Of a DNA stretch of 17,442 bases, positions 1-16,522 are shown one piece after another. The notes under the pieces were generated by a model. It was not told the origin of the DNA and searched no databases. It saw nothing but the letters and a program-made list of their open reading frames with translations. How positions within the stretch are numbered: the stretch's first letter is position 1; each line of letters starts with the position of its first letter. Location of the stretch: NCBI GenBank assembly GCA_900299205.1, contig OMIW01000087.1, positions 1-17,442 of the forward strand, written 5' to 3'. A program made the translations under genes and the position numbers. The DNA comes from Pseudomonadota bacterium. GTDB taxonomy: Bacteria > Bdellovibrionota_C > UBA2361 > OMIW01.

Positions 1-50
1 AACTAAGAGGTGGGCAAGCTCTAGGCAAGGAAGAGGAGGCCAGAGCGGAA

Positions 51-1493
51 TTGAAGAGCCTTCGAGACCAGCGAGATACCCTGAAGGAGACTTTTTCGGA
101 ATTAGTATCTCAAACCGATCCCTCGGGGCTTGAAGAGTCTGCGGAGCAGCAGGAGCTCGACCTTGACAAAGAATTGCGAGCGCTTCTGGGACCGCTCATA
201 AAGGAGCTCAAGGAGCTTACTCGGCGACCTCGGGAGATAGAAAGGATTCGTTCAGATATCGTAAGGGGGCAACTTCGACTCTCTCGGATTGACAAGGCGA
301 TTGAAAACATTGGCATCTCTCGTGCGCAGCTCACGGATAAAGAGGTCCTCGATAAAATCGATGAAGTAGCCGCCTCGTGGGAGGCGCAGAAAAGAGCGAC
401 CTCGACTGATATAGAGATAAATCGCCAGCGACTCCAACAGAAGGAGGCGGAAAAAATATCGCTCTCGGCGGCTTTAGCTGAGTTATTTGGTCTCTTTTTC
501 AGGAGTCGGGGGAGAAATCTTCTCGTTGCCCTAACGGCTGCTGTGCTTTTTTGGGTTCTGGCACTTGAGGTGTGGAGGAGGTCGATGAGGCTTTCCTTTT
601 TTGCTCGTCGTCAAGCCTCCATGCCCATGCGATTCCTTAATCTCGTGGCGATGGGCGGAGTCGGTATGGGCTCCCTTATCATGTTCGCGGTTGTACTTTA
701 TTTTTTCGGTGATTGGGTACTTCTCATCCTCACTATTGCGCTGCTTGTGGGAATTGTGTGGACGTCGAAACAAGCGTTCGCAAGATTTTGGGCGCAGTTG
801 TCTCTGCTGATGAACGTCGGTTCGGTTCGGGAGGGAGAAGTGGTGGTGATAGACCAGCTTCCCTGGATTGTGCAGCGACTCAATCTACACAGCCAGCTGA
901 TAAATCCTCGGCTATCGGGCGGGTTTGTGAGGGTTCCTCTCAACCACCTGCTTTCTCTGCGATCTCGCCCCCTGAATCCCAGGGAAAAGCTCTTTCCAAC
1001 TAAGGAGGGGGACTGGGTAATTTTGGCCGATGATGTACTTGGACGGATAGCTTTGCAGACACCGGAAGTGGTGAGAGTAGACCTTATGGGAGGGGCCTAC
1101 AAAAACTATCCGACACCGTCATTTCTTTCCCTCCATCCACGAGTTCTTTCCCGGGGGTTCCGTTTATCCGAAATATTCGGATTGGATTACCGTCATCAAA
1201 AACAACTGATGGTCGAGATGGTCCCGAAGCTACGAGAATTTATTGAGGAAAAACTGAGGAACTTGGGATTCGGTGAGGATCTCGTTCAGGTATCAGTTGA
1301 GGTGCACTCGGCAGCATCATCGTCCCTCGAACTGATAGTTCTTTGCGATTGTCCGGGAGAATTAGCCGAGCACTACGATAAATTGAAGAGAAGTATCCGA
1401 CGATTTTTTATCGAAGCGTGCAATACGTTCAATTGGACGATACCTTTTGCACAAATGATGCTACATCTCGCGCCACCACGCTCAGAGGGGTGA
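51..1493 (+). CDS. MscS-family (small-conductance mechanosensitive channel)-like membrane protein with N-terminal coiled-coil region. Possibly 5'-partial: the frame is open back to base 3, so the true start may lie upstream of the window.
   Basis: 480-aa ORF. Residues 1-140 are charged heptad-like (ELDLDKELRALLGPLIKELKELTRRPREIERIRSD). Hydrophobic helices follow (LLVALTAAVLFWVLALEVW; FLNLVAMGGVGMGSLIMFAVVLYFFGDWVLLILTIALLVGIVW). The segment KEGDWVILADDVLGRIALQTPEVVRVDLMGGAYKNYPTPSFLS resembles the MscS beta-domain signature (GDW[IV]..G..G.V..I....T.i.....PN). A TTG at 51 is preceded by GAGGAGG at 33-39 (11-nt spacer), so it is a plausible start, but no in-frame stop occurs upstream within the window. 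Confidence 0.6.
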   Translation: MKSLRDQRDTLKETFSELVSQTDPSGLEESAEQQELDLDKELRALLGPLIKELKELTRRPREIERIRSDIVRGQLRLSRIDKAIENIGISRAQLTDKEVLDKIDEVAASWEAQKRATSTDIEINRQRLQQKEAEKISLSAALAELFGLFFRSRGRNLLVALTAAVLFWVLALEVWRRSMRLSFFARRQASMPMRFLNLVAMGGVGMGSLIMFAVVLYFFGDWVLLILTIALLVGIVWTSKQAFARFWAQLSLLMNVGSVREGEVVVIDQLPWIVQRLNLHSQLINPRLSGGFVRVPLNHLLSLRSRPLNPREKLFPTKEGDWVILADDVLGRIALQTPEVVRVDLMGGAYKNYPTPSFLSLHPRVLSRGFRLSEIFGLDYRHQKQLMVEMVPKLREFIEEKLRNLGFGEDLVQVSVEVHSAASSSLELIVLCDCPGELAEHYDKLKRSIRRFFIEACNTFNWTIPFAQMMLHLAPPRSEG

Positions 1494-1613
1494 GCCAGTA
1501 ATGGCTCAGTGGAAGTAGGGTGGCGTTTCATTGCGGCGGCGACTGAGGCTAATAGTAAGCTACTAGTATCTCAGCTTATTTAGTGCTCTGCCCCTCAAAA
1601 TGATGATGCACGG

Positions 1614-1645
1614 CATATTTTTTTAGCTAAAGCCCAAAAAATATG
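1614..1645. promoter_or_regulatory. Perfect 10-bp inverted repeat with a 12-bp spacer upstream of the kinase gene. Candidate operator, in the AT-rich putative promoter region.
   Basis: CATATTTTTT (1614-1623) ... AAAAAATATG (1636-1645), spacer TAGCTAAAGCCC, lying 60-90 bp upstream of the GTG at 1705. A two-half-site geometry is typical of dimeric transcription-factor sites. The all-A/T stem makes a terminator unlikely. Confidence 0.25.
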
Positions 1646-1704
1646 CGGAATAGGGTCAAATCGAGTCGATAAACGAGGTAACCAAATGATTTGTGGGCTA
1701 ATCG

Positions 1705-2841
1705 GTGGGAAAAGATGTGTATGAGATCCTTTCGGACTCACCCAACAAACGGGATGGTTCTACCAATCAGGATCTAAACATTCTTGAGCCGGGTACTCTT
1801 ATCGGCAGAGTGTACCGGATTTTGCGCTGCCTTGAGATTGGCAGGATGGGGGTGGTGTATGTATCGGAAGTTCTTGAGGATGATGTCTCCCCACCTCCCT
1901 TGGTCGTCATCAAAATGCTTTTTCCCTCGATTGTCGCCGACGGAGAGAGTAACCCCCTCTTTGTCAGGTTTCACCGTGAAGTCGATGCGCTCTTCAGAGT
2001 CGCTCATCCAAATGTAGTCGGGGCTCTTCAGTTCATAGGCGTCGACAATCATGTCGGATACTCAATGGAGTATGTCGACGGAGGCGATCTTTCCCGAATC
2101 CTCGCCTCTCAGGGGCCATTCGACGAACAAAAATCCATAGAAGTGCTCACGCAGATCGCGAGGGGCCTTGAAGCAATTCACAGAGCGGGAGTTATTCATC
2201 GAGACCTGAAGCCGGAGAATATCCTTGTTACCCGACAAGGGGAGCCTAAGATCTCCGATTTTGGTGTCGCATATTGTGGGTATGGGCAAAGACTAACCAC
2301 GAGAGGGTCGATTGTCGGCACTCTTTCGTATCTATCCCCAGAATATCTAGAGAAGGGGATAGTTCTCCGTCAAGGGGATGTCTATGCTCTAGGGGCTATC
2401 GGTTATGAAATGCTTATTGGAGAGCCACCTTTTTGGGGACTGAGTCTTTGTGAGACGATCGAATCAAAGGTATCTCGTCCCCCTCCTGACCCACGAGAAA
2501 AAAGGAGTGCTGTATCGAGAGCCCTCTCCGAGATCATAATGAAAGCCCTTGCGACTAACGTTGATGCACGATTTCGGACCGCCAGCGAATTCTGTGATGC
2601 GTTAAAGATGTTAGTCGGGACACCGGTAACTTCTCCACGAAGTAGGCACCTTCTGGACTCTGGGGATACCGTCAAAGAAATCGAGGCCAAATTAAATGAC
2701 GACAATGACGCTTCCGCTCCGATTGAAGTAGGTCAGGCTCCCTCAAGCGCTACGAATATTCAAGAGATTACCTATTGGCTCTCAATTCTGCTTGTCGCTA
2801 TCCTAGGGGGCTTAATAATATTCTTGGCTTTGTCGCGATAA
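1705..2841 (+). CDS. Hanks-type serine/threonine protein kinase with a C-terminal transmembrane tail anchor
   Basis: 378-aa ORF with a GTG start at 1705 (an alternative GTG lies at 1717). Kinase subdomains are readable: Gly-loop LEIGRMGVVYV, invariant Lys in VVIKML, catalytic loop HRDLKPENILV, DFG in ISDFGVA, activation/P+1 GTLSYLSPE, subdomain IX DVYALGAIGYEMLIG. A single hydrophobic helix sits at the extreme C-terminus (ITYWLSILLVAILGGLIIFLALSR), leaving only two residues beyond the membrane. Confidence 0.85.
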   Translation: MGKDVYEILSDSPNKRDGSTNQDLNILEPGTLIGRVYRILRCLEIGRMGVVYVSEVLEDDVSPPPLVVIKMLFPSIVADGESNPLFVRFHREVDALFRVAHPNVVGALQFIGVDNHVGYSMEYVDGGDLSRILASQGPFDEQKSIEVLTQIARGLEAIHRAGVIHRDLKPENILVTRQGEPKISDFGVAYCGYGQRLTTRGSIVGTLSYLSPEYLEKGIVLRQGDVYALGAIGYEMLIGEPPFWGLSLCETIESKVSRPPPDPREKRSAVSRALSEIIMKALATNVDARFRTASEFCDALKMLVGTPVTSPRSRHLLDSGDTVKEIEAKLNDDNDASAPIEVGQAPSSATNIQEITYWLSILLVAILGGLIIFLALSR

Positions 2842-3074
2842 TTTGCGAGTCGCACCAAAAAGCTCTTATCGCTTTGATGGAAACAAATTTTCCCTTGCAC
2901 CCCAAAGTGCTCTCACTCAAAATCAAGGGGTCAGTTTTCACAAGAGGAAGAAGAGGCATGGTCTGATCAGTGCTTTGGCGAAGCCAAACTCATCATGAGC
3001 AGAAGGAATAATAAAGATGGCGGATGCCATCTCCTCGGCTATTTCTTGCACCTTTGAATCGGTAAGAAGGCGTC

Positions 3075-4613
3075 GTGAGGGACATTCCCGTGAGATTGAG
3101 AAGCCCTTTTATATTCGTTCGAATCGCCGATTATTGTCGCTGGTGTGTGCTGTTATTTCTTTTGGTTGCCACGCTGCGGTGCGATGCGAGCCCGTCCTCT
3201 GATCCAGAAATTCTTGCTCGCCGAGGCATCTCCGCTCCTGTTAGTTCTGACGGTGAGCAGCTGGTACCGGAGCTCACCCTTGAGAGCCCGATTGGTGGAT
3301 GGACCTCCTCTCAGATGTTGGATATTCGGGGTCGATGTAGCGATGAAACCGTCAATCCAATCGTCGTTAATATTAACGGTGCTCGGTATCTTGTTTCTCC
3401 CAATACTGACGGTGCTTTCGCCCGCTCATTTCCCGCATCACAGGGCAGGAATACCGTTGAGGTCATCTGTCAGAATACCAAAGGAGTCGCACGACAGATT
3501 CGCTCTCTGTATGTTCAAACTGCCCCTCTTCCCCTCAAGGTAGTCCTTACCAGCGATACGGATGGGGTCTACACAGACTTACATGTTTATGAGCCAAATG
3601 GGGCGCATGTCTATTGGGCCCAAACAAAATCTCCTAGTGGCGGATTGTTTTTTCTCAATACGCAGGGGGACAATTTTGATAAACCGGGATACGGTCCCTA
3701 TTTATACGCTCATCCTGCCCCACCTATCGGCGTGTATCAAATCGACGCGAACTATTGGCCTGGAGGAGCCGTTCAGCACACCCTGGGTAATCTTGAGATT
3801 ATCACTAATGAGGGGACTCCTCAGGAATCTCGAAGGCGAGTGCAACGGCCTCTCGCACGACCAGGTGAGACGGCGACTCTTGCCTTCGTGATCATGCGAG
3901 GAATCGCCCAGAGCCCTGTCATTTATGTGCCCGGACAGGACTCCGAGGCGACTATGCCACCCGAGATCGCCAAGTACCGGCAGGAACATCCTCCATCAAC
4001 AGGAGGGGAGTATGCATCCCTACCTCTCAATGACAAAAGTCACCTAAGGGAAGCTGTCGTCGGAGTAGCTCTCGCTCAAGCAAAAGCGTTTAGCCCCCTC
4101 TGGGAACCATCGCAGCGAGATTGCGCCGGCCTCGTTCGGTTCGCCTTCCGTGAGGCGCTCAAGCCAAGAACGCTTGAACAGCGGGTTAAGCTTGGTTTGC
4201 CATCCCAGCTCACGTTTCCGCCAGTGTCGATTATGGCTCGACTTCACTTCCCCGAATATCCACGATTATGGCGGCAGGGAAACGGCACCCACGGAGCCTT
4301 CGCAGACAGTGAGATCTTGATTGGGCATAATTTTCTCCCGATAGGTCGATCGGTTGAAGAGGCACAGAATGGCGATATCCTGGCTTATGCGAAGTCATTC
4401 ACGACGGATGATCCGTTACATCTCATGATAGTAGCGCGGTCTCCCCACGGGGGACTGATGACGGTGTATCATAATGGAGCTCGCGCCCCGCACGGGGCGG
4501 TACGGGTCGTGCGCATCGGTGAGCTTGATACGGCTGATGATGAAACCTGGAGACCGGTCGCGGCAAATCCTCATTTCTTAGGAGTCTATCGGTGGAAACC
4601 CCTCATGGGCTGA
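3075..4613 (+). CDS. Secreted protein. It has an N-terminal signal peptide, a central beta-rich domain (possibly DUF2135/YfaP-like), and a C-terminal papain-fold-like domain with NlpC/P60- or DUF1175 (YfaT)-like Cys/His signatures.
   Basis: 512-aa ORF with a GTG start at 3075, preceded by AAGAAGG at 3064-3070. N-terminus has a hydrophobic h-region CVLLFLLVATLRCDASP. C-terminal ~190 aa carry RDCAGLVRFAFREAL (Cys codon 4122-4124), as in the DCSGLV catalytic-Cys block of NlpC/P60. Later NGDILAYAKSF...PLHLMIVARSPHGGLMTVYHNG (His codon 4419-4421) fits the GDLvff...HvgIY.G.g..iHa pattern. The stop at 4611-4613 overlaps the next gene's start. Confidence 0.6.
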   Translation: MRDIPVRLRSPFIFVRIADYCRWCVLLFLLVATLRCDASPSSDPEILARRGISAPVSSDGEQLVPELTLESPIGGWTSSQMLDIRGRCSDETVNPIVVNINGARYLVSPNTDGAFARSFPASQGRNTVEVICQNTKGVARQIRSLYVQTAPLPLKVVLTSDTDGVYTDLHVYEPNGAHVYWAQTKSPSGGLFFLNTQGDNFDKPGYGPYLYAHPAPPIGVYQIDANYWPGGAVQHTLGNLEIITNEGTPQESRRRVQRPLARPGETATLAFVIMRGIAQSPVIYVPGQDSEATMPPEIAKYRQEHPPSTGGEYASLPLNDKSHLREAVVGVALAQAKAFSPLWEPSQRDCAGLVRFAFREALKPRTLEQRVKLGLPSQLTFPPVSIMARLHFPEYPRLWRQGNGTHGAFADSEILIGHNFLPIGRSVEEAQNGDILAYAKSFTTDDPLHLMIVARSPHGGLMTVYHNGARAPHGAVRVVRIGELDTADDETWRPVAANPHFLGVYRWKPLMG

Positions 4614-6304
4614 ATCGTGTTGTGGTAGATCGCCGAAAGTGGATATTTTCAGCGATATTGCTGGTCGCCACTGTGTTGGCCGGTTCCGCGATATATGGGG
4701 TTCCTCGACTAACCGATTTCGGTCCCTTAGTGAGTGCTCTTCCTTCATCGATAGTCTACCAACCCGTATCCATAGTGCTCGATGGTAATCCTTGGGACCT
4801 GCCTGGGGCGGAGACTAAAGGTGAGACCGATAAACCGCGAGCTTCTCCTTCCGTTTCCTCTGCGGGAGGGGCGACTGCAACACTCCCCGAGGTGCCGACA
4901 TCAGGCACAGTTGAAACTGAGACCTGGGAGCTGGAAAGTAAATCATCGATCATTTCGGCTGAAATCGTCTCACCACGGCGTGTGATCAGTGCCGGTGAGT
5001 ATCTGTTCTCGGATGCCGGCCCTTTTGGTCCTAAGCTGGCTCCCTTGGTGCGAGCTGAAGTAGGCACATTGATAACCTCATATGAGCGCTCGCTTCTCTC
5101 GTTTTCTCCTGATGGCAGATTGCTGTTGACCGCATTGAAGCTTGGAGCAGTCAGTGGTTCGCAATTAGTCGTTACCTTCAACGATGAAAACGCGTCTGTT
5201 GCCTTCTTGGTGCCTCGTCGTGGAGCCCGATTGTTTAGTGCATTTCTGCGAGCGGTTATCCAATTATCAGCGCGCAAAGCATTCTCGCTCAGGAATGGTT
5301 CGGTGATTATAGAGGCGCGCATCGGACGAAGCACCGTTGGAATAGCGGAGACCGAGCAGTGGTATGTGATAGGCTCAACACCTCGCTCGGTAGCGCAGGC
5401 GTTGATTGATTCTCCGCCTGGGACTCAAACTCATAAGGTCAAGGGGGATGTCGTTATTTCGATCTGTGGTGAGGGACGACTAGGTGGGGCATTGCTGCGT
5501 ACCTTGACCGGCAGTGAACGATATCAGGTAGCCGTTGGAGTGGACCTGCGGATTCCATCACAGCCGAAGCTCACAGCTCTCCTTCCACCTGCCCGCATTT
5601 TTTCCGCGCTCTCTCGCCCTGTTCCCATTTCCCTCTTGCGATCAATTCCACACGACGTTGGAGTTGGGATTATTTCCTCCATTCCGATGCCTCTGAGTGC
5701 GGTAAGTGCTCAGTGGGTTAGTTTGGCCCGTGGTGAATCGTCGCTCTTGGAGCTACCTGCGGCCGATGGCGTAGGGCTTGTCTGGGATATTAATGCGGAC
5801 GACTCGGTTGCGGCAATTACGGTTGCTGTTCCTTCTGAACGCCCGGATGGAGTCGAAGAGACGTTCTGGCGGAAGGACCTTCCGCGAGGAAGTTGTGGTG
5901 CAAATTCTGTTCAAATTTATGCGACGACTACCTCCCTGTACCAGAGCATTCGAGAGTCGTGCGATGGTGCGTCTTTATCACTCGCATCTTCCCTTGATTT
6001 AACGGCTGCAGAGAATTCATCGCAGCTGGTAATAACTGTTCAGCCGAGTCAGATTCTGGCTGGTATCATTGACCAGGGAACCCCCAAATTTCCGAAAAGT
6101 ATTGGGTGGCAAAGGTCATGGCAGAGGAGAGCAGGTGCAAATCCATCATCAATGGAGGAAGTAAAGGTTCTGGTCAAGGATCTGATACCGTTGATGGAGG
6201 GCGCCCTGAGTAGATTGCCAGCGATTGTATTTTCGGGCAACAAGGGGAGTGATGGCTTCGTATGGTTGACATCGCGCATGAAGAGTCCGAAGCGGAGTGG
6301 ATGA
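4592..6304 (+). CDS. Periplasmic protein anchored by one N-terminal TM helix. No recognisable catalytic motif. Candidate accessory protein of the macroglobulin operon (size and topology reminiscent of YfaA/MagB-type partners).
   Basis: 570-aa ORF with a GTG start at 4592, with AGGAG at 4580-4584 (7-nt spacer). Its start overlaps the upstream stop by 22 nt. The N-terminal segment RRKWIFSAILLVATVLAGSAIYGV is a signal-anchor-type helix. The remainder is Ser/Gly/Ala/Val-rich and beta-like. Its stop at 6302-6304 is 2 nt before the ATG at 6307 of the macroglobulin gene. Confidence 0.7.
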   Translation: METPHGLNRVVVDRRKWIFSAILLVATVLAGSAIYGVPRLTDFGPLVSALPSSIVYQPVSIVLDGNPWDLPGAETKGETDKPRASPSVSSAGGATATLPEVPTSGTVETETWELESKSSIISAEIVSPRRVISAGEYLFSDAGPFGPKLAPLVRAEVGTLITSYERSLLSFSPDGRLLLTALKLGAVSGSQLVVTFNDENASVAFLVPRRGARLFSAFLRAVIQLSARKAFSLRNGSVIIEARIGRSTVGIAETEQWYVIGSTPRSVAQALIDSPPGTQTHKVKGDVVISICGEGRLGGALLRTLTGSERYQVAVGVDLRIPSQPKLTALLPPARIFSALSRPVPISLLRSIPHDVGVGIISSIPMPLSAVSAQWVSLARGESSLLELPAADGVGLVWDINADDSVAAITVAVPSERPDGVEETFWRKDLPRGSCGANSVQIYATTTSLYQSIRESCDGASLSLASSLDLTAAENSSQLVITVQPSQILAGIIDQGTPKFPKSIGWQRSWQRRAGANPSSMEEVKVLVKDLIPLMEGALSRLPAIVFSGNKGSDGFVWLTSRMKSPKRSG

Positions 6305-9300
6305 GTATGACTGAAAGGGATGAGCCGATGAGCATGAGCGGCGATACTAATCGATCATCAATCGCTTTCGGTAGAATCGGTCAGCAGTGTGCCATGGGCA
6401 GGGTACCCAATGCCCTAAGGTTTTTTATCCTTTTTGGGATTCTTGCTCTGGCTACGGCCGTAAGGGCTGATAGCCCCTTTTACCTAACGGTTTCTCGCTC
6501 CATGAGCGAAAAAGAGCCGGTGCAGATCCGTCTCGATTCATCTGACAATCAATCTCCATTTCTTCTCCGTATTCTTAAGGCATCAGATGTTGACGCCTAT
6601 CTTGATGGCCAAGTGATGTTGAGTCGAGCATATGAGCCGCCGACAACGATTCCCAGTTTGTTGCGGGTTTTCGTTGATGGAGCGAATAAGGCAGTTTCTC
6701 CCCTGACGACTCTGAAGTCAGCGCTGGATAAAGATTTTCGGCGAGCACTTCACGATAGCGTTTCTCCACCTTTGCGCCGCTTCTCATCGGAACCGTTCGT
6801 GGGACCACCATCGATCAGGTATGACCCCCCTAAAGGTTTTTCTATTATTCGACAAACGTACCTTGATTTGTCGACTAGCGGCAAAAAAGCGGATGATGCT
6901 TGGTGGTGGTTTGGCGAAACCCCGTGGGCGATGCCAGAGCAGGCTGGTTATCGAACAAGAGTCATATACATAGATCCCCTGCCACCGGGGCTTTACACTG
7001 TTCAGGGAATTCAAGGAGATAATGAAGCTCAGGCGTTACTGCAAGTTAGTGCGTTATCGGTACAGGTAAAACAGTCAAGTAAGGATCTGCTCATTCGTAT
7101 AATGAACAGAGAAGGGCACCCAGTTTCGGGCGTGACGGCTCGAATTCGCGGGCGGTCTGGATCATGGGAATCGATATCAGGAGTCTCGAATCAGGACGGT
7201 GAGCTGACGGTGACCCGTTCAGAGCCCTTCGATGGACGGCTCGTTGTTCAGGTACATTCAGGATTGTATGGGGATGCTCTGGTAACAACTGATTTCCTCG
7301 CGTCGAGTCACGAGGTTCAGGATGCATTTATCTTTACAGATCGCCCAATTATCAAGCCCGGTGAAGAAGTATTCTTTGGGGGGATTGTCAGAAACTTTCG
7401 CGATGGTCGGCTGGAGGCAGGGACAACTGGAAGCGCGGGGTCGATGACCCTAAAAAACGGAGACTCGACCATTGGTCCTTTGCCAATAACGGTTTCGCCT
7501 GAGGGTAGCTTCAGTGGCATGGTTCCTCTGCCATCAGATGCGATACCGGGGCTGTATCGAGTTACCGCGACTCTCGATGAAAAGCGATATCAGGGGGAGG
7601 TGCGGATTCAGGAGTATGTGAAGCCTAGCTTTTATCTGACATTTGTTGAAAAACCGGCAACATTAATGCCGGGCCAGAATGTTCGATTGGTGTTGTCAGC
7701 GCAACGGTACCGCGGTGGACCTGCTCACCATGTCCGCTATGAGGTTTTTGTTTATAGGAAGCGATTTGAAACGCCTCAATTCGTTGCTGATGCTGGCGGA
7801 GGATTGGTGACGGGGAGCGACTATTACAACGATGTCCGAAGTGGTTCTGCTCTGACTCAGCCACAGCGAGTTTATAGCACCGTCGATAAGCGGATTCAGG
7901 ATGATTCAACCGGGGCAGTGTCATTGAATCCCTGGGCAAGCAGTCCCCTGATGGATGACTTGGGAAAAGCCACCATTGAATTTGTCATTCCTGAGGTACC
8001 TCAGGAGCAAGTGAACGAACAAGGGGGACAGGAGTGGATATATACAATCGTGGTGCGTGCTCAGGATGATGAAGGGGGTAATGCAACTGCATCTGAAAGT
8101 ATATATGTCACCAAAAGTTTGGCATACGCTGCGGCTGGCTTTGCAAAGACCTTCTATGATGAGGGAGATCTTGCGGTTCCATTATCCATCCAGACCTCCA
8201 ATGCTTCCGGCGATTCTGTGGGGCTCGCGAAAGGAGAGGTCCGATGTACCTTGGAGGGAATTGAGGGGAACGAGAATCCCCTACAAACGATACCGTTTGT
8301 GACTGACGACAAAGGTTCAGCGTTAGTATCGATTCCTCTTCACCGAGGTGAGCGAGGAGTGCTGCGAGCTTATCCGAAGGTTACTCAGGTAGAAGACCGG
8401 CCGAATCCATCGCCAATTGAGCCCGACCCAAGTCAGACGATTATCGTTGGTAAAAAAAATGAAAAGATAGTGAAAGAGCCGGTGCTCAATCTGATTCAGT
8501 CGCGTTCGGTATTGTCACCCGGTGAGCACGACACGCTCGTCGCACTCCTTCCTGAGGGTGCGCTTCTTGGTGAACGTCAACGTATGTGGGTATCGGTTGC
8601 AGGACGCAAAATATATGATCGTATGAGCATTCCCCTGAGCGGATCGACACTGAGTATTCCTATTAAAGCAAAGCCGGAGTATGGGACTGCTTTCTATGTC
8701 TCGGTGGCATTGCCGGTCGCGGAAGGACGCTTTGAGGAGCGCACGGTTAGTTATCGGATCGTTCCGAAAGATCAGCTTCTGAGGGTTGAGGTGGCACCTG
8801 AGATTGATGTGGTGGCTCCGTTGCAAGATGCCGCGATTGTCCTCAAGGTGACTGATTCCGAGGGAACGCCGGTGCCTCAGGTCGAAACCTTTACCTCCGT
8901 GGTTGATGAGGCGGTGTACGCCGTTCAGCCTGAGTTCCGACCAACGCTTCTTTCATTCTTTCTCCCCATCGATCGACTCAACGTGAGTTCATTCCTATCC
9001 GATGAACTTCAGGGATATGGGTATGCAGACCGCTTCTTTCGAGCGAACTATCGACTCCATGCATTGAAGGTTCAAAATCAGCCCAAGGATAGGTTGATGC
9101 GGGATACCGCTGGCTTCTTTCCTCATCGCATCACGGATGCAAACGGTGAGGTGCGGATTGTGGTTCCCATGCCATCAAATGTAACGAAGTGGCGGGTTTC
9201 CTCGTTGGCAATCGATCGGTCTGGGAGATTGGGCGAGGGGCGGGGCTACTTCTCCACCAAGAGCGATATCTCCGTAGAGGCTCGGGTCCCTTCGTTTCTT

Positions 9301-11316
9301 CGACAGGGAGATTCGGTGACTGGGAGCGTTGTGGTGGGAAGCCAGGTAGCATCCCAAGAGGTTTCAGGTGAGATAAATATAGCGGTGGAGCGCGGACTTG
9401 GAATTGGTTCGCCAGTGGTTCAGCGACCATTCTCTCTTACCGCCTCCGAGTCGGCGGTTGAACCGCTCAATCTAGTGAGTAGTTCAAATGTCGGAATGGG
9501 GGGAGTACGGGTAGAGATAAAGGGAGCAGCGCCTTCTCTGAAGATTGGTGGAGGACGAGAGTTTGATGTGACCCTTCGCTCTTCTGCAGAAGCGTTCAGT
9601 GAGGCAATTCCTCTCACCTCGGGATTCTGGAAGCTGGAGCGTCCGGAGAGTGTCAGCCGACTAGAGATTATTGGCACCCCTGGATTGGCCGCAGCGGTTA
9701 AGGAGGCCCAGAAATTCCTTCTCAGCTATCCCTATGGCTGCACCGAGCAGCTGTTAGCCTCGACCGTCCCCAATTTCCTAGCGCTTGCGGGGGAAAACTC
9801 ACCAGTAGCGAAGCAAAACCTCGCAACGGGATTGAGGAAACTATTAGCGCATCAGGGCCAGAGCGGAGGCTTTGGTATGTACGCAGGGGACAATCCCTCA
9901 GTTGACCTCACTGCCCTGGTGTATTCGACTCTCATTCCGTTTAAGGATGAAGCATCGCTTACGGGTACCGAAGTTGAGCGGTTGCTGGATGTAATCTTAG
10001 AACGGGGCAAGCAATATTTTCGAGGGATTAAAGAGGAAAACCCCGCAGAGGTATCGGTTGCGCGGGCGCGGGTGTTCGCCAAAATCGGCCCATCAGAGGT
10101 TCCGGGTTCAAATGGAACACTGGGAGAGGACACGTTGAGGAGGTTGTTTGAGGAGGTTGCCCGTAACGATAGTGCGCCGTCAATATCGGCGATAGCCACC
10201 GCATCAGAGCTTCTTCGTCAGTGGGGTGACTATCCTCCTGACGGGGTGTTCCCGCATGGAAATCGGGAAGCGTTCGTTTCACTGGTGAAGAAGCAGTTAC
10301 ACGTCGCCATATCTCAGATTAATTCCGATAGTTCTGGTAAAGGGATCGGGAAGGGTGATCTCCCGTTCTGGTCAGAGGGGAGTGCGCAGACGGCTTCAGT
10401 ATTGAGTGAGCTTTTCGCGTGGGATGAACTCAAGCCTGAGGAGGAGCGAACACTCGCTGAGTATCTCATGAAAGCGTACGATCCTGAGGATGGGTGGGGC
10501 TCCACTCTTGAGACCTCCTCGGTATTGCTCGGTCTGAGGGATTATCTCAGAGTTCGTGAAATTGGATCTAATGAGAGGGAGAAAGCTGATGGACGGGTAT
10601 GTCCGAGCAGTGTCTCGTTGGGTATCGGGTCCGAGACAGTTGCGTGTTTATGCCAAGAGTCGACTGTCCACTGTCTGATCGATAAAGAGAAGCTACGTGT
10701 GTCCCGAGAAGGCCACGTCTTGGTTAAATTGCCCGATTTGCCGAAATCATATCAACTAACTGCTCGTGTAGACCGAGAGGGTAAGCCGGGAGAAACTCCC
10801 CCAGCCGCAGGGGCTCTTCGCGTTGAGCGTACGTTGCTTCGAGTGATTGGCGGAGGCAAAACAGAAGCGGTAACCTCATCGACCAAGCTCCACCGTGGGG
10901 ACACGGTATTAAGTATTGTACGATTCTCCGATCTTCCCGCACCGCGACGACGCTGGCGGGTGAGAGCTGCGAGTAGTCTGTTCGTGGTGAAAGACACGAT
11001 ACCATCGATTGCCATCTCCGTGAATGACGAGCGCGAGGTCCTTGCTGATGCAGGTATTTCTGGTCCTGCGGAGTCAGAGGCATCGAATGATTATTGGGGC
11101 TCGATTCGCGAGACCCATCGGTTCCCGTGGCACATCGAGCGCGTCTTTCAGCTTCCCCGGAGGGAGTTTATTGGGAAGACAAGAACCGTCTACACCGGCT
11201 GGAAAGTTCTGTATTCCGGTAAAGCATCGCTCCCTGCGGCTCGCGTAACGGATATGTATAACGGTGAGCGATATGGGTTGGCCACGGGCGGGGTGCATGA
11301 AGTGGTTGCTGAATAG
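6262..11316 (+). CDS. Alpha-2-macroglobulin family protein (bacterial A2M/thioester-containing protein) with an intact thioester motif. The likely true start is ATG 6307 (GGAG 9 nt upstream) or ATG 6394, just before the signal peptide.
   Basis: 1684-aa ORF. Signal-peptide-like MGRVPNALRFFILFGILALATAVRA|DSP has no lipobox Cys. Thioester pentapeptide GCTEQ lies in LLSYPYGCTEQLLAS (codons 9736-9750, Cys residue ~1160 of the long ORF), at the position expected for the A2M thioester domain. The long beta-rich N-terminal two-thirds is consistent with macroglobulin (MG) domains. Overall length is typical of bacterial A2Ms (1500-2000 aa). The stop is at 11314-11316. Confidence 0.9.
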   Translation: MVDIAHEESEAEWMSMTERDEPMSMSGDTNRSSIAFGRIGQQCAMGRVPNALRFFILFGILALATAVRADSPFYLTVSRSMSEKEPVQIRLDSSDNQSPFLLRILKASDVDAYLDGQVMLSRAYEPPTTIPSLLRVFVDGANKAVSPLTTLKSALDKDFRRALHDSVSPPLRRFSSEPFVGPPSIRYDPPKGFSIIRQTYLDLSTSGKKADDAWWWFGETPWAMPEQAGYRTRVIYIDPLPPGLYTVQGIQGDNEAQALLQVSALSVQVKQSSKDLLIRIMNREGHPVSGVTARIRGRSGSWESISGVSNQDGELTVTRSEPFDGRLVVQVHSGLYGDALVTTDFLASSHEVQDAFIFTDRPIIKPGEEVFFGGIVRNFRDGRLEAGTTGSAGSMTLKNGDSTIGPLPITVSPEGSFSGMVPLPSDAIPGLYRVTATLDEKRYQGEVRIQEYVKPSFYLTFVEKPATLMPGQNVRLVLSAQRYRGGPAHHVRYEVFVYRKRFETPQFVADAGGGLVTGSDYYNDVRSGSALTQPQRVYSTVDKRIQDDSTGAVSLNPWASSPLMDDLGKATIEFVIPEVPQEQVNEQGGQEWIYTIVVRAQDDEGGNATASESIYVTKSLAYAAAGFAKTFYDEGDLAVPLSIQTSNASGDSVGLAKGEVRCTLEGIEGNENPLQTIPFVTDDKGSALVSIPLHRGERGVLRAYPKVTQVEDRPNPSPIEPDPSQTIIVGKKNEKIVKEPVLNLIQSRSVLSPGEHDTLVALLPEGALLGERQRMWVSVAGRKIYDRMSIPLSGSTLSIPIKAKPEYGTAFYVSVALPVAEGRFEERTVSYRIVPKDQLLRVEVAPEIDVVAPLQDAAIVLKVTDSEGTPVPQVETFTSVVDEAVYAVQPEFRPTLLSFFLPIDRLNVSSFLSDELQGYGYADRFFRANYRLHALKVQNQPKDRLMRDTAGFFPHRITDANGEVRIVVPMPSNVTKWRVSSLAIDRSGRLGEGRGYFSTKSDISVEARVPSFLRQGDSVTGSVVVGSQVASQEVSGEINIAVERGLGIGSPVVQRPFSLTASESAVEPLNLVSSSNVGMGGVRVEIKGAAPSLKIGGGREFDVTLRSSAEAFSEAIPLTSGFWKLERPESVSRLEIIGTPGLAAAVKEAQKFLLSYPYGCTEQLLASTVPNFLALAGENSPVAKQNLATGLRKLLAHQGQSGGFGMYAGDNPSVDLTALVYSTLIPFKDEASLTGTEVERLLDVILERGKQYFRGIKEENPAEVSVARARVFAKIGPSEVPGSNGTLGEDTLRRLFEEVARNDSAPSISAIATASELLRQWGDYPPDGVFPHGNREAFVSLVKKQLHVAISQINSDSSGKGIGKGDLPFWSEGSAQTASVLSELFAWDELKPEEERTLAEYLMKAYDPEDGWGSTLETSSVLLGLRDYLRVREIGSNEREKADGRVCPSSVSLGIGSETVACLCQESTVHCLIDKEKLRVSREGHVLVKLPDLPKSYQLTARVDREGKPGETPPAAGALRVERTLLRVIGGGKTEAVTSSTKLHRGDTVLSIVRFSDLPAPRRRWRVRAASSLFVVKDTIPSIAISVNDEREVLADAGISGPAESEASNDYWGSIRETHRFPWHIERVFQLPRREFIGKTRTVYTGWKVLYSGKASLPAARVTDMYNGERYGLATGGVHEVVAE

Positions 11317-13393
11317 AAATACGCTTCGAGAAGTAGCCTCGATATTTGTCATCGCACAAAGTCTGGCGAGTGGGGGTGGACTACAAAGACGGGCGGAATC
11401 GTACGCAGAGCGGTATACCAAAGTGGGGTATACCCTTCCCGAACGAATTGTCGTCACCGAGGCGGTAAACGGTGATGGATCGTTATCTGGACTACATGCA
11501 GGTGGCTGGTCACCGGGAGTCATCGGACTGCGAGCAAATCCAACGGGATTATTTGGTATCGATCAGTATCTTGCCCATGAATTAGCTCATGAGGCGGTAT
11601 TTCGGACCTGTGGAGGAATTCCCGAGTGGAAAAGTGAAGCGCTCGCGATGCTCTTGAGTGGTGAGCTCGCACAGGTCTGGGAGGTGGAGCAATCGGCTCT
11701 TAAGGATCGTGTGCATGATCGCAAGCTCCTGTGGGAGAGCGTCCGGGGTGTAAGGTCTTTCGAACCGGGTGCTGCTCGCGCACTACGTCAGATATTGCGA
11801 GCGTACGCACATCACAAACAACGACCGTGTGAGTTGCCGGAGGCAGCGGCCCAGGCTTTGCGTGGGCCAGTCCGAGATGAAACCCCTCGTTGGGTTGCAC
11901 TGTCTCTTTCGAGTGGTCGCTTGCTCGCCAAAAAGGGAGACATCTTCGATGAGGTCGCACCGGCCTCTCTGCTAAAGCTCCTCTATGTTGCGAGCGATAC
12001 TCGTGCTCTCTCCGTTGAGCAGGTTCAGGGGCTGCTCCGCAGTGATGAGGATCAGATTCGAGGGAGCAGTTCATTCGATCTAGGTCGCTACATGCTGATG
12101 TCAGCGCCTCTCCGAGATCACAGCAGTCTGCGAGAAGTTCCCCCAGCTCCGAGTGTTCTGATGGGTCAGGCAGATGCAGCCTCCTATCCCCTCCAGGGCT
12201 CATTGCAGGCGATTGCCCAAGCTGTTCGCAGTGCCATTCTTTTAAAGGGACGTTCATCTTGGAGCCCTTTGGTTAAGTTTGATGAGGATGAGAAGGCAAC
12301 AATCGGCATGGCCTCACAGAGCGTTCGACAGCTGATTCGAGAGCAGTCGGGCTGGGTAAAAACAGGCACAGCATCTTTGCACGATGGCACGCCCACAGAA
12401 GGAGTAATAGCGGTTGTGTGGCCGGCAACAGATCCGACCGTTCTACTGGTCGCTGCCCGAAACGGTGTGAAGGGAGCCCAGGTCTGGAATGGAGATGAGC
12501 CCACGCTCAATCGGGTCATGAAGCTTCTTGCGCCGTTTTCTCGAGATACGAAGAGTGAGGTTCTTTCGTTGCTTCCCCGAAACAGCTTTTCTATAAAAGC
12601 GCCATTTTCGGATACCTCCTGTGAACGGTTGATCCTCGATGATGGTGGCATTACCTCGACCTGTGGTGCTATTGAGATAGAAACCACCGTCAAGGGAGCC
12701 CTCCGTCGGCGATTCTTCCATGGAGTTCTCTCGTTTCGAGAGGATGCATTGGTTCTTCGGACGGATCCATACACCTACGGAGAGTATGTGGTTGAGGGCG
12801 AGGTAGCCCGGGAAGCTGGAGAACTGCGTGAGGCAGTTCAGATGGTCGGTGGTTGGAATAGTGCAAATGGCAACCACGGTCATCGATGGGGGACCGTGTG
12901 TGATACTTCGCATTGCATGGTTCAGAAGGGAAGCTCATCCCAATTGCTGCCACCAATCTCTCCTGAGCAGCTTGAACGCGTCGAACGCATATTTAGGATG
13001 CTTTCCGAATTTGCTGCGCGGCGAGGAGAGCGATGGTTCGAGTTTTCTTACAGCAAGCCAGCGGAATGGAGTCGAACGGTGCCAGTTATAGATGTTACCG
13101 CACGGATGGGGCTCGAGGGCAGTCTCTCGGTGTATCGTCAGCGAAACAAGGGAGGAGACGTGGCGATCGTGTTCAGCGGTGACGAGGTTACCCATGTAAC
13201 AACCTGCGATACTCTGATGGTAAAGCTCGATCTTCCCTCTTGCCCATCGCGAATCACGCAAGAGGAGGGGCTTGTTGCATTTCAGGGCGACATAGTCGGT
13301 CACGGTCGGGGGCTATCGATATGGGACTGGAATCGTCGTTGCATCGAGTCGCATTGCTCGGTTGAAGAAATTCTCCGGAGTAGCTATGGGTGA
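11264..13393 (+). CDS. Secreted multi-domain protein. It has an N-terminal zincin-like domain with a HExxH motif, a central PBP/beta-lactamase-like domain (SxxK ... KTG), and a Cys/His-rich C-terminal region. The probable start is ATG 11297, overlapping the A2M stop.
   Basis: 709-aa ORF. The weak signal-like N-terminus MKWLLNRNTLREVASIFVIAQSLASGGG begins at 11297. HELAH lies in QYLAHELAHEAVFRTCGG (11576-11590) and is followed by EALAML, a possible third ligand Glu. SLLK in APASLLKLLYVA (Ser 11966-11968, Lys 11975-11977) and, ~131 aa later, KTG in GWVKTGTASLHDGTPTEGVIAVVWPATDPTVLLVAARNG (12359-12367) match the serine-transpeptidase/beta-lactamase motif spacing and the context after KTG. The C-terminus carries repeated SHC/Cys-His blocks (GHRWGTVCDTSHCMVQ; RCIESHCSVEE). 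Confidence 0.65.
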   Translation: MSDMGWPRAGCMKWLLNRNTLREVASIFVIAQSLASGGGLQRRAESYAERYTKVGYTLPERIVVTEAVNGDGSLSGLHAGGWSPGVIGLRANPTGLFGIDQYLAHELAHEAVFRTCGGIPEWKSEALAMLLSGELAQVWEVEQSALKDRVHDRKLLWESVRGVRSFEPGAARALRQILRAYAHHKQRPCELPEAAAQALRGPVRDETPRWVALSLSSGRLLAKKGDIFDEVAPASLLKLLYVASDTRALSVEQVQGLLRSDEDQIRGSSSFDLGRYMLMSAPLRDHSSLREVPPAPSVLMGQADAASYPLQGSLQAIAQAVRSAILLKGRSSWSPLVKFDEDEKATIGMASQSVRQLIREQSGWVKTGTASLHDGTPTEGVIAVVWPATDPTVLLVAARNGVKGAQVWNGDEPTLNRVMKLLAPFSRDTKSEVLSLLPRNSFSIKAPFSDTSCERLILDDGGITSTCGAIEIETTVKGALRRRFFHGVLSFREDALVLRTDPYTYGEYVVEGEVAREAGELREAVQMVGGWNSANGNHGHRWGTVCDTSHCMVQKGSSSQLLPPISPEQLERVERIFRMLSEFAARRGERWFEFSYSKPAEWSRTVPVIDVTARMGLEGSLSVYRQRNKGGDVAIVFSGDEVTHVTTCDTLMVKLDLPSCPSRITQEEGLVAFQGDIVGHGRGLSIWDWNRRCIESHCSVEEILRSSYG

Positions 13394-13831
13394 CATGGTG
13401 GACAGGTAATCCGCAATGAATGACGCACTGTGGGGGACTCCCATGATTGCCCCCCGGTCACTCTTTGGCACTACGCCGAAAGGAAGCCTCTTTGGGGATG
13501 CTATCTCTTTGAAGCGGCGGCTCAGTAAAGTGGTAAAAACCGATCAGCTCAATAATAATAACGATTGAACCCAAAATGGGCAGAGCGGTTCACGGCGCCG
13601 TTTTTGAAGTTTTTCTTCGGTGATTGGTGGGTTAGCCCTGGACCACTAACCGATCCCTCAAGTTATGAATCTCTTATTCCGATACCGTCTTTTCGCGAGT
13701 CTCGAATCGGATCGGTTTTTTTAGCCGCAAACTGGATCGTATGGCTCCCTAAGCTCACCCTTCTTAATCGATAGTTGAAGAGAAAAAGGTCATCGGATTA
13801 AACTGGCCCCGCAAGGCATAGTGGCTTTTGA

Positions 13832-15919
13832 ATGCGGTCGAGAGAGGGAATTTTAGCTAACATTGAGGTTCTTATGGAAACAGTAACAAGCGATTTTGTT
13901 ATTTGGCGTTTCTTTTATCTGGTTTTGATCGGATTGGTAGGGTTTATCGCGTATAGAGGGCGTTTTATTCGTTACATTCCCAATAATCGGGTAGGTGTAG
14001 TAGAAAAGTTTTTTAGCACCCACGGATCGGTTGACGAGGGAATCATTGCTCTCAATGGAGAGGCTGGATATCAGCCGTCGGTGTTAAGAGGTGGATGGCA
14101 TCTTATGAAGCCGTTCATATACCGGATTCATAAGGTACCTTTAGTAACCATTCCGCAAGGCAAGCTTGGGTACGTTTTTGCGCGGGACGGCAAGGCACTA
14201 CTTCCCGAGCAGACCCTTGCGTCTAATGTTGAGGCATCTGACTTTGAAGATGTCGTTGATTTTCTCAGCAAGGGTGGGCAAAAGGGGCCTCAGCGGAAAA
14301 TTCTTCGGGAAGGAACTTACGCAATCAACCTCGCCCAGTTTGTCGTCATTACCCACGATACGCTCTACTATCACGATCTCGATGCGGGTGATGGCGCGCT
14401 GTTTCAGCAGATGGCTGAAGTCATCGCGGACCGCGGCGGTTTTGAGCCGGTCGTAATCAAGGACCGTGATGATAGTATCGGTGTGATAACCGTTCACGAT
14501 GGGCCATCGCTTAGTGAGGGCGAAATAATCGCCCCCATTGTCGGCAACGATGCCGGGGATAGGGATACCTTTCACAATAACTTTCAGGATCCGGAGGCGT
14601 TTCTCCGAGCTAAAGGAAGGAGGGGGCGACAATATCAGGTGCTCGTTGAAGGTACCTACTACATTAATCGATTATTTGCGACAGTTGAAGTCGTTCCGAA
14701 GACGATCGTAGAGGTGGGTCAAGTTGGTGTAGTGGTTTCGTACGTCGGAGCTCTCGGTGCGGATTTGTCGGGACTAGACTATAAGCACGGCGAATTGGTT
14801 CGGCAGGGTTCTCGTGGCGTATGGGAAACGCCGCTACTTCCTGGTAAATACGCTTTCAATACGTACGCTGGTAAAGTTGTAATGGTACCAACGACGAATT
14901 TTATTCTTAAATGGAATCGCTCGGAGACCGGTTCCCATAGGTTTGACGAAAATCTTGCAGAAGTTTCTCTTATCACTAAAGACGCTTATGAGCCGTCACT
15001 GCCATTAAGCGTTGTTGTGCATATTGATTATAAGAAGGCACCTCTGGTAATTCAGAGATTTGGAGACATTAAGCGGCTTGTCGAACAGACACTCGATCCA
15101 ATGGTTTCGGCCTATTTCAAAAACGTAGGTCAGACACGGACGTTGATTCAACTTCTCCAGGATAGGAGCGAAATTCAGCAGACATCATCGATGGAGATGA
15201 AAGCAAAGTTCGCCCACTACAATCTTGAGCTCGAAGAAGTATTAATTGGGACTCCGACATCAGGAGCGACCTCAGGGCAGATAGAGCAGATTCTGAATCA
15301 GCTGCGGGCCCGACAGCTTGCAGAGGAACAGGTGGAAACATATTCCCGTCAGCAGAAAGCATCGGTCAAAGAAAGGGAATTGAGGGAGACCGAGGCAAAG
15401 GCAAGGCAGCAGCAGGCGCTCACCGAATCTGAGATCAGTATCGAGATTCAATCAAATGAGGGAAAGGCCGAGTACCACCGGGCTTTGCAGCAGGCGGCTC
15501 AAATTCGTGCGCTTGCGGAGGCTGAAGCTGAGCGTGCAGCTCGAGTAGGAATTGGGCAGGCCATGGCTATCGAAGAGCAGGTGGCGGCCTATGGGGGTGC
15601 TCAATACCAGGTTCTGCAACAGGTGATAAACCGCTTTTCGGAAGCTATCGAAAAGTCCCGTGTAGATGTGGTTCCTAAGATAGTAATCGGCGGGGCTCAG
15701 GCCGGTAATAGTGAAAACTCGGGGCGCGGATTCTCTGGCGGTGGCGGTGCTAATGTTATCGAGGGGCTGATTGCTCTTTTGCTGTCCGAGAAGGTCGGTC
15801 TCGATATCCTGAACGAGTCTCGACCGCCACGAAATCCTGCCACCGAGGCAATGCGAAAGGCGATATTGACAAATATTGAAGCGGCAAATGAGACCAGTGA
15901 TCTCGAAGTGGGTAAATGA
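13832..15919 (+). CDS. SPFH/band-7 (flotillin-family) membrane protein with a long C-terminal Ala/Glu/Gln-rich coiled coil. The probable start is ATG 13874.
   Basis: 695-aa ORF. The N-terminal TM helix FVIWRFFYLVLIGLVGFIAYRG is followed by a beta-rich SPFH-like region. The C-terminal ~200 aa are flotillin-like EA/Q-rich coil (ARQLAEEQVETYSRQQKASVKERELRETEAKARQQQA...ALAEAEAERAARVG). A GAGG at 13865-13868 precedes the ATG at 13874. Confidence 0.7.
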   Translation: MRSREGILANIEVLMETVTSDFVIWRFFYLVLIGLVGFIAYRGRFIRYIPNNRVGVVEKFFSTHGSVDEGIIALNGEAGYQPSVLRGGWHLMKPFIYRIHKVPLVTIPQGKLGYVFARDGKALLPEQTLASNVEASDFEDVVDFLSKGGQKGPQRKILREGTYAINLAQFVVITHDTLYYHDLDAGDGALFQQMAEVIADRGGFEPVVIKDRDDSIGVITVHDGPSLSEGEIIAPIVGNDAGDRDTFHNNFQDPEAFLRAKGRRGRQYQVLVEGTYYINRLFATVEVVPKTIVEVGQVGVVVSYVGALGADLSGLDYKHGELVRQGSRGVWETPLLPGKYAFNTYAGKVVMVPTTNFILKWNRSETGSHRFDENLAEVSLITKDAYEPSLPLSVVVHIDYKKAPLVIQRFGDIKRLVEQTLDPMVSAYFKNVGQTRTLIQLLQDRSEIQQTSSMEMKAKFAHYNLELEEVLIGTPTSGATSGQIEQILNQLRARQLAEEQVETYSRQQKASVKERELRETEAKARQQQALTESEISIEIQSNEGKAEYHRALQQAAQIRALAEAEAERAARVGIGQAMAIEEQVAAYGGAQYQVLQQVINRFSEAIEKSRVDVVPKIVIGGAQAGNSENSGRGFSGGGGANVIEGLIALLLSEKVGLDILNESRPPRNPATEAMRKAILTNIEAANETSDLEVGK

Positions 15920-16091
15920 AAGAGATTGTTCGGAAAAGTTTGCCTTTTTCTGAGGCCGAGGGGCGTAAAGTGCCCCTCCCCTCTGAAGCAAGGCTCAGGT
16001 GATACGCCCGCAGTTCCTCGTACCCTGAAACTTACCCCTTTCGAAACAGCTCAACCGCAACGCGACCATCGAGAAACATCAGCTTGCCCAC

Positions 16092-16140
16092 GTTACCCTC
16101 TGCCGAGCATCGATGGAAATCCTGCTCGGTGGAGGGTAAC
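16092..16140 (+). other. Long imperfect inverted repeat (49-nt stem-loop) in the flotillin 3' intergenic region. It may be a structured RNA element or a protein-binding palindrome.
   Basis: GTTACCCTC-TG-CCGAGCA (16092-16109), loop TCGATGGAAATCC, then TGCTCGG-TG-GAGGGTAAC (16123-16140). Arms of 9 bp and 7 bp are separated by a 2-nt mismatch. It sits immediately upstream of the terminator-like hairpin. Confidence 0.3.
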
Positions 16141-16151
16141 AAGGAGTCCGG

Positions 16152-16184
16152 CTTGTTGTGTACCACACGACAAGCACCGTTTTT
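16152..16184 (+). terminator. Candidate intrinsic terminator in the 3' region of the flotillin gene
   Basis: Stem CTTGTTGTGT (16152-16161) / ACACGACAAG (16165-16174), 10 bp with one G-U, closed by a 3-nt loop. After a 5-nt spacer comes TTTTT (16180-16184). The spacer between stem and T-tract is atypical, which lowers confidence. Confidence 0.35.
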
Positions 16185-16522
16185 GAAACTGGGTTCATCT
16201 GAATCAGAGGAGTGGTGACCGTGTTATAGCTGGTCAGGCAAAGTTTTTTTATTATTATCCCGGACCCACTGAAAGAGCAGTAATGGCCTTTCTCGAAATT
16301 ATTTATCACGGATTTTTTGGTCCTCAAGGTTCAAGGCTTAAAATGTATATTTAAAGACCCCGATTGGGCGCTCTTACTAAGATATTGCTACTGTTGCTCG
16401 GAGTAACACCAACATAAGGCTGGGTAGCATTCGAGATCATAGGTACTCGTGCGGATGAGAAAAAAGGTTTCAAATCGTAACATTAAATTGGGACGCAACC
16501 TATCAAATAAGAATTGAAAAGA

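Follow-up and report, generated by a model that had tools for sequence, protein, structure and literature searches.

What does the first gene of an alpha-2-macroglobulin (A2M) operon on contig OMIW01000087.1 encode, and does the papain-like module at the C-terminus of its product act as an enzyme or as an anchor? The analysis covered positions 1–17,442 of the contig (referred to below as the window), and the gene lies at positions 3075–4613 (Table 1). A sequence-only reading had described a secreted protein in which a β-rich part of about 300 residues precedes a papain-type module, and had taken it to be either a fusion of the YfaP+YfaT kind or a peptidoglycan or peptide hydrolase that works together with the macroglobulin. 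We find that 3075–4613 is a real gene for a protein, predicted to be exported, that holds two accessory proteins of A2M operons in one chain.

Two accessory proteins in a single chain

The peptides quoted in the sequence-only reading are found in the translation of the open reading frame (ORF). A copy with 99% identity is present on an independent 24-kb metagenome contig (ENA), where a product of 507 amino acids is called from the GTG equivalent to position 3090. The start codon of the fusion gene is thus uncertain by five codons (GTG at 3075 versus 3090), which alters nothing downstream. The protein has five near-identical cluster members of 507–512 amino acids from several sources. Its nearest relatives are 57–58% identical, and one of them stems from the metagenome-assembled genome of an 'uncultured delta proteobacterium'.

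A model of the whole protein was built with AlphaFold2 (AF2) on 62 homologues. It has a mean predicted local distance difference test score (pLDDT) of 83 and a predicted template-modelling score (pTM) of 0.52, and contains an α/β domain at residues 318–507. Modelled alone, this C-terminal domain reaches a pLDDT of 88 and a pTM of 0.86. The pTM values of the two models differ, which, along with the linker and its pLDDT below 50 at residues 310–313, points to tethered, independently folded modules.

At the N-terminus the model contains a hydrophobic helix (residues 13–34), and the alignment of the 62 homologues has the family consensus A-x-A/TPSDDP (the slash marks the cut) at the position of the predicted cleavage site. 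From these observations and the sequence features listed in Table 1 we infer export of the fusion protein via Sec. There is no lipobox, the residue at −1 of the cysteine being an arginine. The β-rich N-terminal part of about 300 residues is borne out by DSSP analysis of the AF2 model, in which strands from residue 67 to residue 284 form two sandwiches.

The first sandwich scores 29.7 bits against Pfam Glucodextran_B (cutoff 27) over residues 65–138, and Foldseek matches this region to tandem Ig-like domains. Two of its residues, Cys88 (3336–3338) and Cys132 (3468–3470), are invariant among the 62 homologues. Such conservation suggests that they form a structural disulfide, in line with a location in the periplasm, and taken together with the signal-peptide features the pair fits with an oxidising compartment. 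The second sandwich carries the DUF2135 signature (PF09906), which the sequence-only reading had named as worth searching for and which scores above its curated cutoff (35.5 bits against 22) over residues 216–257 (nt 3720–3845). In a BLASTP alignment the N-terminal half is 30% identical to Escherichia coli YfaP (E value 2e-24) and covers nearly all of it (YfaP residues 1–249 of 258). Taken together, the two sandwiches equal one whole E. coli YfaP.

The YfaP_C sandwich also contains a dense set of invariant acidic and histidine residues between nt 3555 and 3746 (residues 161–224), namely Asp161, Asp168, His170, Glu173, His178, Asp202, His213 and Asp224, which lie in the stretches TDLHxYEP ... 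GYGPY ... DxNYWPG. This cluster looks like a metal-binding site.

The C-terminal half matches the Pfam family DUF1175 (PF06672) far beyond chance, with 166.5 bits against a cutoff of 27 and an E value of 8.6e-49 over residues 300–510, covering positions 5–225 of the 226 in the profile; the isolated C-terminal domain scores 169.6 bits. Precomputed annotations of the protein collection name the same two families, PF06672 'MagC' and PF09906 'YfaP_C'. Alignments with YfaT and MagC, which the sequence-only reading had proposed, are both positive, with the Cys and the His invariant. BLASTP gives 36% identity to E. coli YfaT (E value 4e-24). Pseudomonas aeruginosa MagC (crystal structure, PDB entry 7BK8) is matched with an E value of 2.9e-18 from the single sequence and of 3e-27 with the 62-sequence profile. 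When this profile is compared with all PDB sequences, MagC is the only solved relative found by sequence; matches to calcineurin and HDAC6 (E values of 0.0004–2) were judged to be due to chance.

Compared with MagC as the solved member, the predicted model of the C-terminal module confirms the papain-like NlpC/P60 fold that the sequence-only reading had put forward. Membership of the narrower families named alongside it did not hold. The window protein has no match to PF00877 (NlpC_P60) even at E values up to 10, and no sequence match to a CHAP domain. Six homologues with 51–53% identity do pass the PF00877 cutoff of 23 (24.8–27.4 bits) over the Cys-to-His span, and E. coli YfaT scores 20.8 bits. 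In these homologue matches, about 55 residues that PF00877 does not have are inserted after the Cys helix and before the His strands. The link to NlpC/P60 is drawn from the fold and from the PF00877 matches of homologues rather than from PDB sequence matches, and the fusion protein is therefore a member of the NlpC/P60 superfamily (clan) and not of PF00877 itself. The classical NlpC/P60 hydrolases of PF00877 (MepS/Spr, LytE, CwlO and RipA/RipB) are only 11–22% identical to the window module and lack its insertion of about 55 residues between the Cys helix and the β-strands.

Comparison with the Yfa and Mag proteins

The two halves belong to the same Pfam families as E. coli YfaP (b2225, DUF2135) and YfaT (b2229, DUF1175). 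In E. coli, however, yfaT and yfaP are found at the two ends of the operon yfaA-yfaT-yfaS-yfaQ-yfaP (NC_000913), separated by 6.6 kb, while in the window they are fused. Nothing in the window operon clearly matches E. coli YfaA (DUF2138) or YfaQ (DUF2300) in sequence.

In P. aeruginosa, MagC (PA4490, encoded in magABCDEF) is a stand-alone protein of about 24 kDa with its own signal peptide, whereas the corresponding module of the window is the C-terminal half of a 512-residue chain. The N-terminal half can be likened to MagA (PA4492) and MagF (PA4487) by COG assignment and by its match to YfaP, since MagA and MagF are placed in COG4676 (the YfaP family) and MagC in COG3234 (YfaT) (PMC3735191, Table 2). 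MagA and MagF are stand-alone proteins of 28–29 kDa present as two copies per operon, whereas the window has one copy, fused to the MagC module. The genes magA and magC are separated by magB in Pseudomonas (PMC5764988).

Spread and origin of the fusion

In a scan that took a single genome for each species, 180 relatives were detected; 80 loci (L003–L082) were taken for analysis. As tblastn reads through stops, each of these loci was checked for stop codons between the modules. Complete fusions are present in 46 of them and partial ones in two (L003–L050), 31 are split and one shows a change of frame (L057). The fused forms come from Methylococcales (complete Methylomonas chromosomes among them), Syntrophobacteraceae, Bdellovibrionota, Oligoflexus and Silvanigrellaceae. 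The split forms (31 of the loci L051–L082) come from Myxococcota and one member of the Bdellovibrionales, and have the two genes adjacent and in the same order.

The Myxococcota loci (Myxococcus, Corallococcus and Archangium) have the same gene order as the window, with a YfaP-like gene, a YfaT-like gene, a gene for a protein of about 560 residues, a thioester A2M and a gene for a protein of about 740 residues, at 38–42% identity. Between the modules they have a stop codon and a further signal peptide, in place of which the window protein has a spacer of about ten residues. When fused and split forms are aligned, the fusion junction falls at about residues 310–317 (GGEY/ASLPLNDK, nt 4002–4025), which coincides with the lowest internal pLDDT of the AF2 model (residues 310–313). 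The stops of the split genes, after which a new Met and a signal peptide begin the next gene, align just 5' of LLRxxVAxVALAQ, the conserved sequence with which the MagC module starts, and the spacer in the window protein stands where the second signal peptide was. The window gene is thus a derived fusion of two neighbouring genes. Of the two options left by the sequence-only reading, the YfaP+YfaT-like fusion is the one upheld, with DUF2135 and DUF1175 detected by Pfam in one chain and BLASTP matches to both E. coli proteins.

In a large protein search, 629 relatives were found among the scored candidates. The best 120 of these 629 are all 492–593 residues long and share the same architecture; they come from Methylomonas, other Methylococcaceae, Syntrophobacter and many metagenomes. 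Several relatives are annotated by JGI as 'YfaT (DUF1175 family)/YfaP (DUF2135 family)'. The fusion is common and already annotated in databases, and the window gene adds a member to this group, not a new kind.

Two observations concern individual loci. The split yfaP-like and DUF1175 genes share a reading frame and appear to be fused unless stops are checked, for example at about 10800–10860 of L053. Locus L057 (10001–11487), with 57% identity the closest in the species-genome collection, has its halves in different frames, which could reflect either an indel error in the assembly or an independent split.

A conserved Cys-His-His set

Read directly from the DNA, positions 4122–4124 are TGC, encoding Cys350 within RDCAGLVRFAFREAL, and positions 4419–4421 are CAT, encoding His449 within PLHLMIVARS / DDPLHLMIVARS, exactly where the sequence-only reading had placed a catalytic Cys and a His. 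The proposed order of Cys followed by His stands and both residues are invariant, but the pattern was incomplete: a second histidine, His466, had been missed, and the set is Cys-His-His. His466 aligns with the His of AYHTG in MagC and of IYHTG in YfaT. All three residues are invariant in the 62 homologues and in each of the 82 loci in which they are covered, including E. coli YfaT, and this holds down to 38% identity in the Myxococcota.

In the AF2 model Cys350 opens a helix, while His449 and His466 are positioned on two successive strands. This predicted placement is the canonical NlpC/P60 arrangement. MepS has a Cys-His-His triad in the same canonical arrangement. For MagC, Zouhir et al. 2021 reportedly described an 'inactive conformation'. 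In a passage of PMC10318531 that cites Zouhir 2021, DUF1175 is described as 'inactive ... binding to peptidoglycan'. The conserved Cys-His-His set puts this 'inactive' label in question, and its being so strictly kept suggests that the site is not dead but has an activity that is latent or regulated.

The macroglobulin and the class of the operon

The macroglobulin of the window contains the thioester motif GCTEQ at residues 1159–1163, within SYPYGCTEQL (CTEQ, nt 9739–9750). In the fetched loci, CxEQ is present within YPYGCxEQL in 65 of 65 macroglobulins that stand beside fused or adjacent YfaP–YfaT genes, as CTEQ (31), CLEQ (24), CAEQ (4), CVEQ (4) or CIEQ (2). MagD, the macroglobulin of MagC, has neither a thioester nor any cysteine (PMC3735191), and differs in this from the CTEQ-bearing protein of the window. 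The coding frame of E. coli yfaS is likewise devoid of CxEQ.

Two types of bacterial macroglobulin have been described, in which those of the multi-gene Mag/Yfa operons ('Type II') lack the thioester motif and the thioester forms ('Type I') are lipoproteins adjoining pbpC (PMC5764988, PMC3735191). The operon of the window does not correspond to Type II, as the thioester is present and DUF2138 and DUF2300 are absent (no Pfam match in operon genes 2 and 4). It does not correspond to Type I (ECAM/YfhM with pbpC) either: the thioester is present, but the signal peptide of the macroglobulin, read by eye, ends in ...LALATAVRA/DSP without a lipobox Cys, and Pfam detects no gene for a penicillin-binding protein in the 17,442 nt. 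With a thioester, without a lipobox Cys and without such a gene nearby, this operon type lies outside both published classes, which shows that the two-type scheme (thioester with pbpC versus a thioester-less six-gene operon) is incomplete. No paper describing an operon type with a thioester A2M and fused or adjacent YfaP–YfaT was found in the literature searched.

Proposed role and alternative explanations

By analogy with the Mag proteins, the fusion protein is probably an exported periplasmic accessory subunit of the A2M system, with its YfaP half on the macroglobulin and its MagC half on peptidoglycan. After export via Sec, the YfaP-like half would bind the co-encoded macroglobulin in the way that MagA and MagF bind MagD. 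The MagC-like half would dock onto peptidoglycan, as reported for MagC, and the single chain would tether the thioester-bearing macroglobulin to the sacculus. Held there, the macroglobulin could protect the wall from proteases or wall-degrading enzymes that come in. The adaptor role is assigned to the YfaP half because MagA and MagF each bind MagD in a 1:1 ratio (PMC5764988). The mag operon shields P. aeruginosa from peptidoglycan-targeting type VI secretion system (T6SS) effectors (PMC12663445).

The fusion provides support of the Rosetta-stone type for YfaP- and MagC-type modules acting together. It argues that MagC-type and MagA/F-type modules work side by side, a point of interest given that the place of MagC in the Pseudomonas complex is hard to pin down, and it offers an experiment of nature on the Mag/Yfa macroglobulin complexes, which are poorly understood. 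As mag was recently shown to protect against T6SS toxins that degrade the wall, a simpler version with four genes and a fused adaptor could lend itself well to biochemical work.

Several observations weigh against this role. MagC and MagD form no stable binary complex in gel filtration and deletion of magC barely affected MagD (PMC5764988), so that the anchoring role is a hypothesis even in Pseudomonas. The window macroglobulin, unlike MagD, has a thioester motif, and operon genes 2 and 4 have no clear homology to MagB/YfaA, which makes the transfer of the Mag model an extrapolation. Furthermore, the invariance of the Cys-His-His set across phyla suits an enzyme better than a pure anchor.

A tentative alternative is that the C-terminal module is a working cysteine hydrolase of the NlpC/P60 type (a peptidoglycan endopeptidase or amidase, or a peptidase) that is delivered or regulated via the macroglobulin complex. 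It is conceivable, at about the same level of doubt, that such a protein would act on the wall by remodelling or repairing it, or would process a partner, instead of merely anchoring. No relative examined, whether fused, split or stand-alone and down to 36–42% identity, lacks the Cys-His-His set, whose sequence context fits the classical NlpC/P60 signature D-C-x-G-L-V; G-D-[IL]...H-[LV]-x-I; x-H-x-G. Close homologues exceed the PF00877 cutoff, and operon gene 4, with its SpoIID-like and HExxH motifs, also hints at wall or peptide chemistry. On the other hand, the only studied member is reported in the same passage of PMC10318531 to bind peptidoglycan but to be inactive. The insertion of about 55 residues relative to PF00877 could occlude the groove, and the window protein itself remains below the PF00877 threshold.

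A broader interpretation, which we regard as doubtful, takes the fused or adjacent YfaP–MagC pair as the hallmark of a third class of macroglobulin. This class would combine a non-lipoprotein thioester A2M with diverged Mag-like accessory proteins and a conditionally active MagC-type enzyme, the MagA/F- and MagC-type components forming one physical unit in the Rosetta-stone sense. If true, the MagC-type module would not be the 'inactive' anchor that is assumed from Pseudomonas.

Some members of the NlpC/P60 superfamily act as acyl-transferases or transglutaminase-like enzymes. The Cys module could in principle do the same and cooperate with the thioester, for example by fixing an activated macroglobulin–protease complex to the stem peptides of peptidoglycan, but we consider this very improbable. 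The macroglobulin beside fused or adjacent genes always has CxEQ (65 of 65), and E. coli YfaT has a faint match to the Pfam family TGL (E value 0.037). Nevertheless, such a coupling is purely speculative and without precedent. Moreover, the triad is also present in stand-alone YfaT and MagC, whose macroglobulins have no thioester, and hence does not depend on thioester chemistry.

Finally, the idea that the long ORF is an artefact (a frameshift or misassembly joining two genes) or a chance motif match, for which one could cite the separate halves in Myxococcota and their different frames in the close relative L057, is refuted by the five near-identical cluster members from several sources and the independent 24-kb contig, by the 46 complete fused genes in species genomes (complete Methylomonas chromosomes included) and by profile E values such as that for DUF1175.

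Operon and neighbouring genes

The sequence-only reading had called the gene the first of an operon, and the fusion indeed heads a four-gene unit in which successive genes overlap at their start and stop codons. The flanking genes, a kinase upstream and an SPFH gene downstream (Table 1), are not conserved beside the operon in other genomes. The order of fusion, a gene for about 570 residues, A2M and a gene for about 710–760 residues recurs, in fused and split form, in most of the fetched loci that are long enough to show it. Several Methylomonas loci lack the fourth gene or have it at another place.

Table 1. Positions of the fusion gene, its parts and the other genes in the window
Feature	Position (nt)	Strand	Basis
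YfaP(DUF2135)–YfaT/MagC(DUF1175) fusion gene	3075..4613	+	512-aa ORF, GTG start; Pfam matches; 99%-identical metagenome gene
Predicted Sec signal peptide, aa 1–38	3075..3188	+	Basic n-region, WCVLLFLLVATL core, CDA/SP site
β-Sandwich (Ig-like) domain 1, aa 65–147	3267..3515	+	Pfam Glucodextran_B, AF2 strands 67–147, Foldseek
β-Sandwich domain 2, aa 152–284, YfaP_C/DUF2135 signature	3528..3926	+	Pfam, BLASTP, AF2 strands
Inter-module linker, aa 285–317	3927..4025	+	Low pLDDT and split-gene alignment
MagC/DUF1175 domain, NlpC/P60 (papain-like) fold, aa 318–507	4026..4595	+	Pfam match aa 300–510
Cys350 codon (DCAGLV), putative nucleophile	4122..4124	+	N-terminus of helix 350–362; aligns with MagC Cys
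His449 codon (HLMIV), putative general base	4419..4421	+	Start of strand 448–455; aligns with His of MagC QHLMI
His466 codon CAT (VYHNG), putative third triad residue	4470..4472	+	End of strand 461–466
Operon gene 2, 570 aa, N-terminal transmembrane helix, MagB/YfaA position	4592..6304	+	Conserved synteny
Operon gene 3, alpha-2-macroglobulin, 1684 aa	6262..11316	+	Pfam MG2, A2M, TED, BRD
Operon gene 4, 709 aa, MagE/YfaQ position	11264..13393	+	HExxH...E and SpoIID-like CDTxHC motifs
Ser/Thr protein kinase, C-terminal transmembrane helix	1705–2841		Pkinase E 1.5e-42
SPFH/Band_7 protein, 695 aa	13832–15919		SPFH/Band_7 family
Partial ORF, at least 310 codons, hydrophobic N-terminal segment	~16510–17442		Runs off 3' end of window

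The start of operon gene 2 overlaps the fusion gene by 22 nt. An assignment of its product to YfaA/DUF2138 was rejected, as BLASTP, Pfam searches with nine orthologues and hhalign (probability 0.2%) were all negative. The family is very divergent, with members only 15–20% identical to the window copy.

The product of operon gene 4 would have 698 residues if translation starts at 11297, as in the gene call on L001, and has no Pfam match. Compared with YfaQ/DUF2300, BLASTP is negative and hhalign gives a marginal match with an E value of 0.01 and a probability of 4%, confined to the SpoIID-like stretch. The SpoIID cutoff is passed by one gene 4 orthologue (25.2 bits) and by E. coli YfaQ (27 bits). 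Examples of gene 4 orthologues are found at L052:17570–19780 and L053:17730–19967, and E. coli yfaQ at L083:3149–4798. An invariant His105-Glu-x-x-His109 ... Glu125 set in gene 4 resembles that of zinc metallopeptidases, and a conserved stretch LCDTTHCMVF is typical of SpoIID. As YfaQ has HEYLH ... E near its C-terminus, its sequence suggests the same two modules as in gene 4, with their order swapped.

Leader of the fusion gene and base composition

The base composition of the operon gives no sign of foreign origin, and NCBIfam, PADLOC, Rfam and tRNA scans of the window returned no relevant matches. Promoter and terminator scans of about 2700–3200 and 13300–13900 gave counts at or below the shuffled expectation, and the 5' leader of the fusion gene folds no better than shuffled sequences (z = −0.38). 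The leader of magA in P. aeruginosa is a direct target of RsmA/CsrA. In the window, a 7-bp hairpin, AGAUGGC-GGAU-GCCAUCU, is present at 3013–3034 with GGAU in its loop, 41 nt 5' of the start codon; the ribosome-binding region of the fusion gene contains another GGA.

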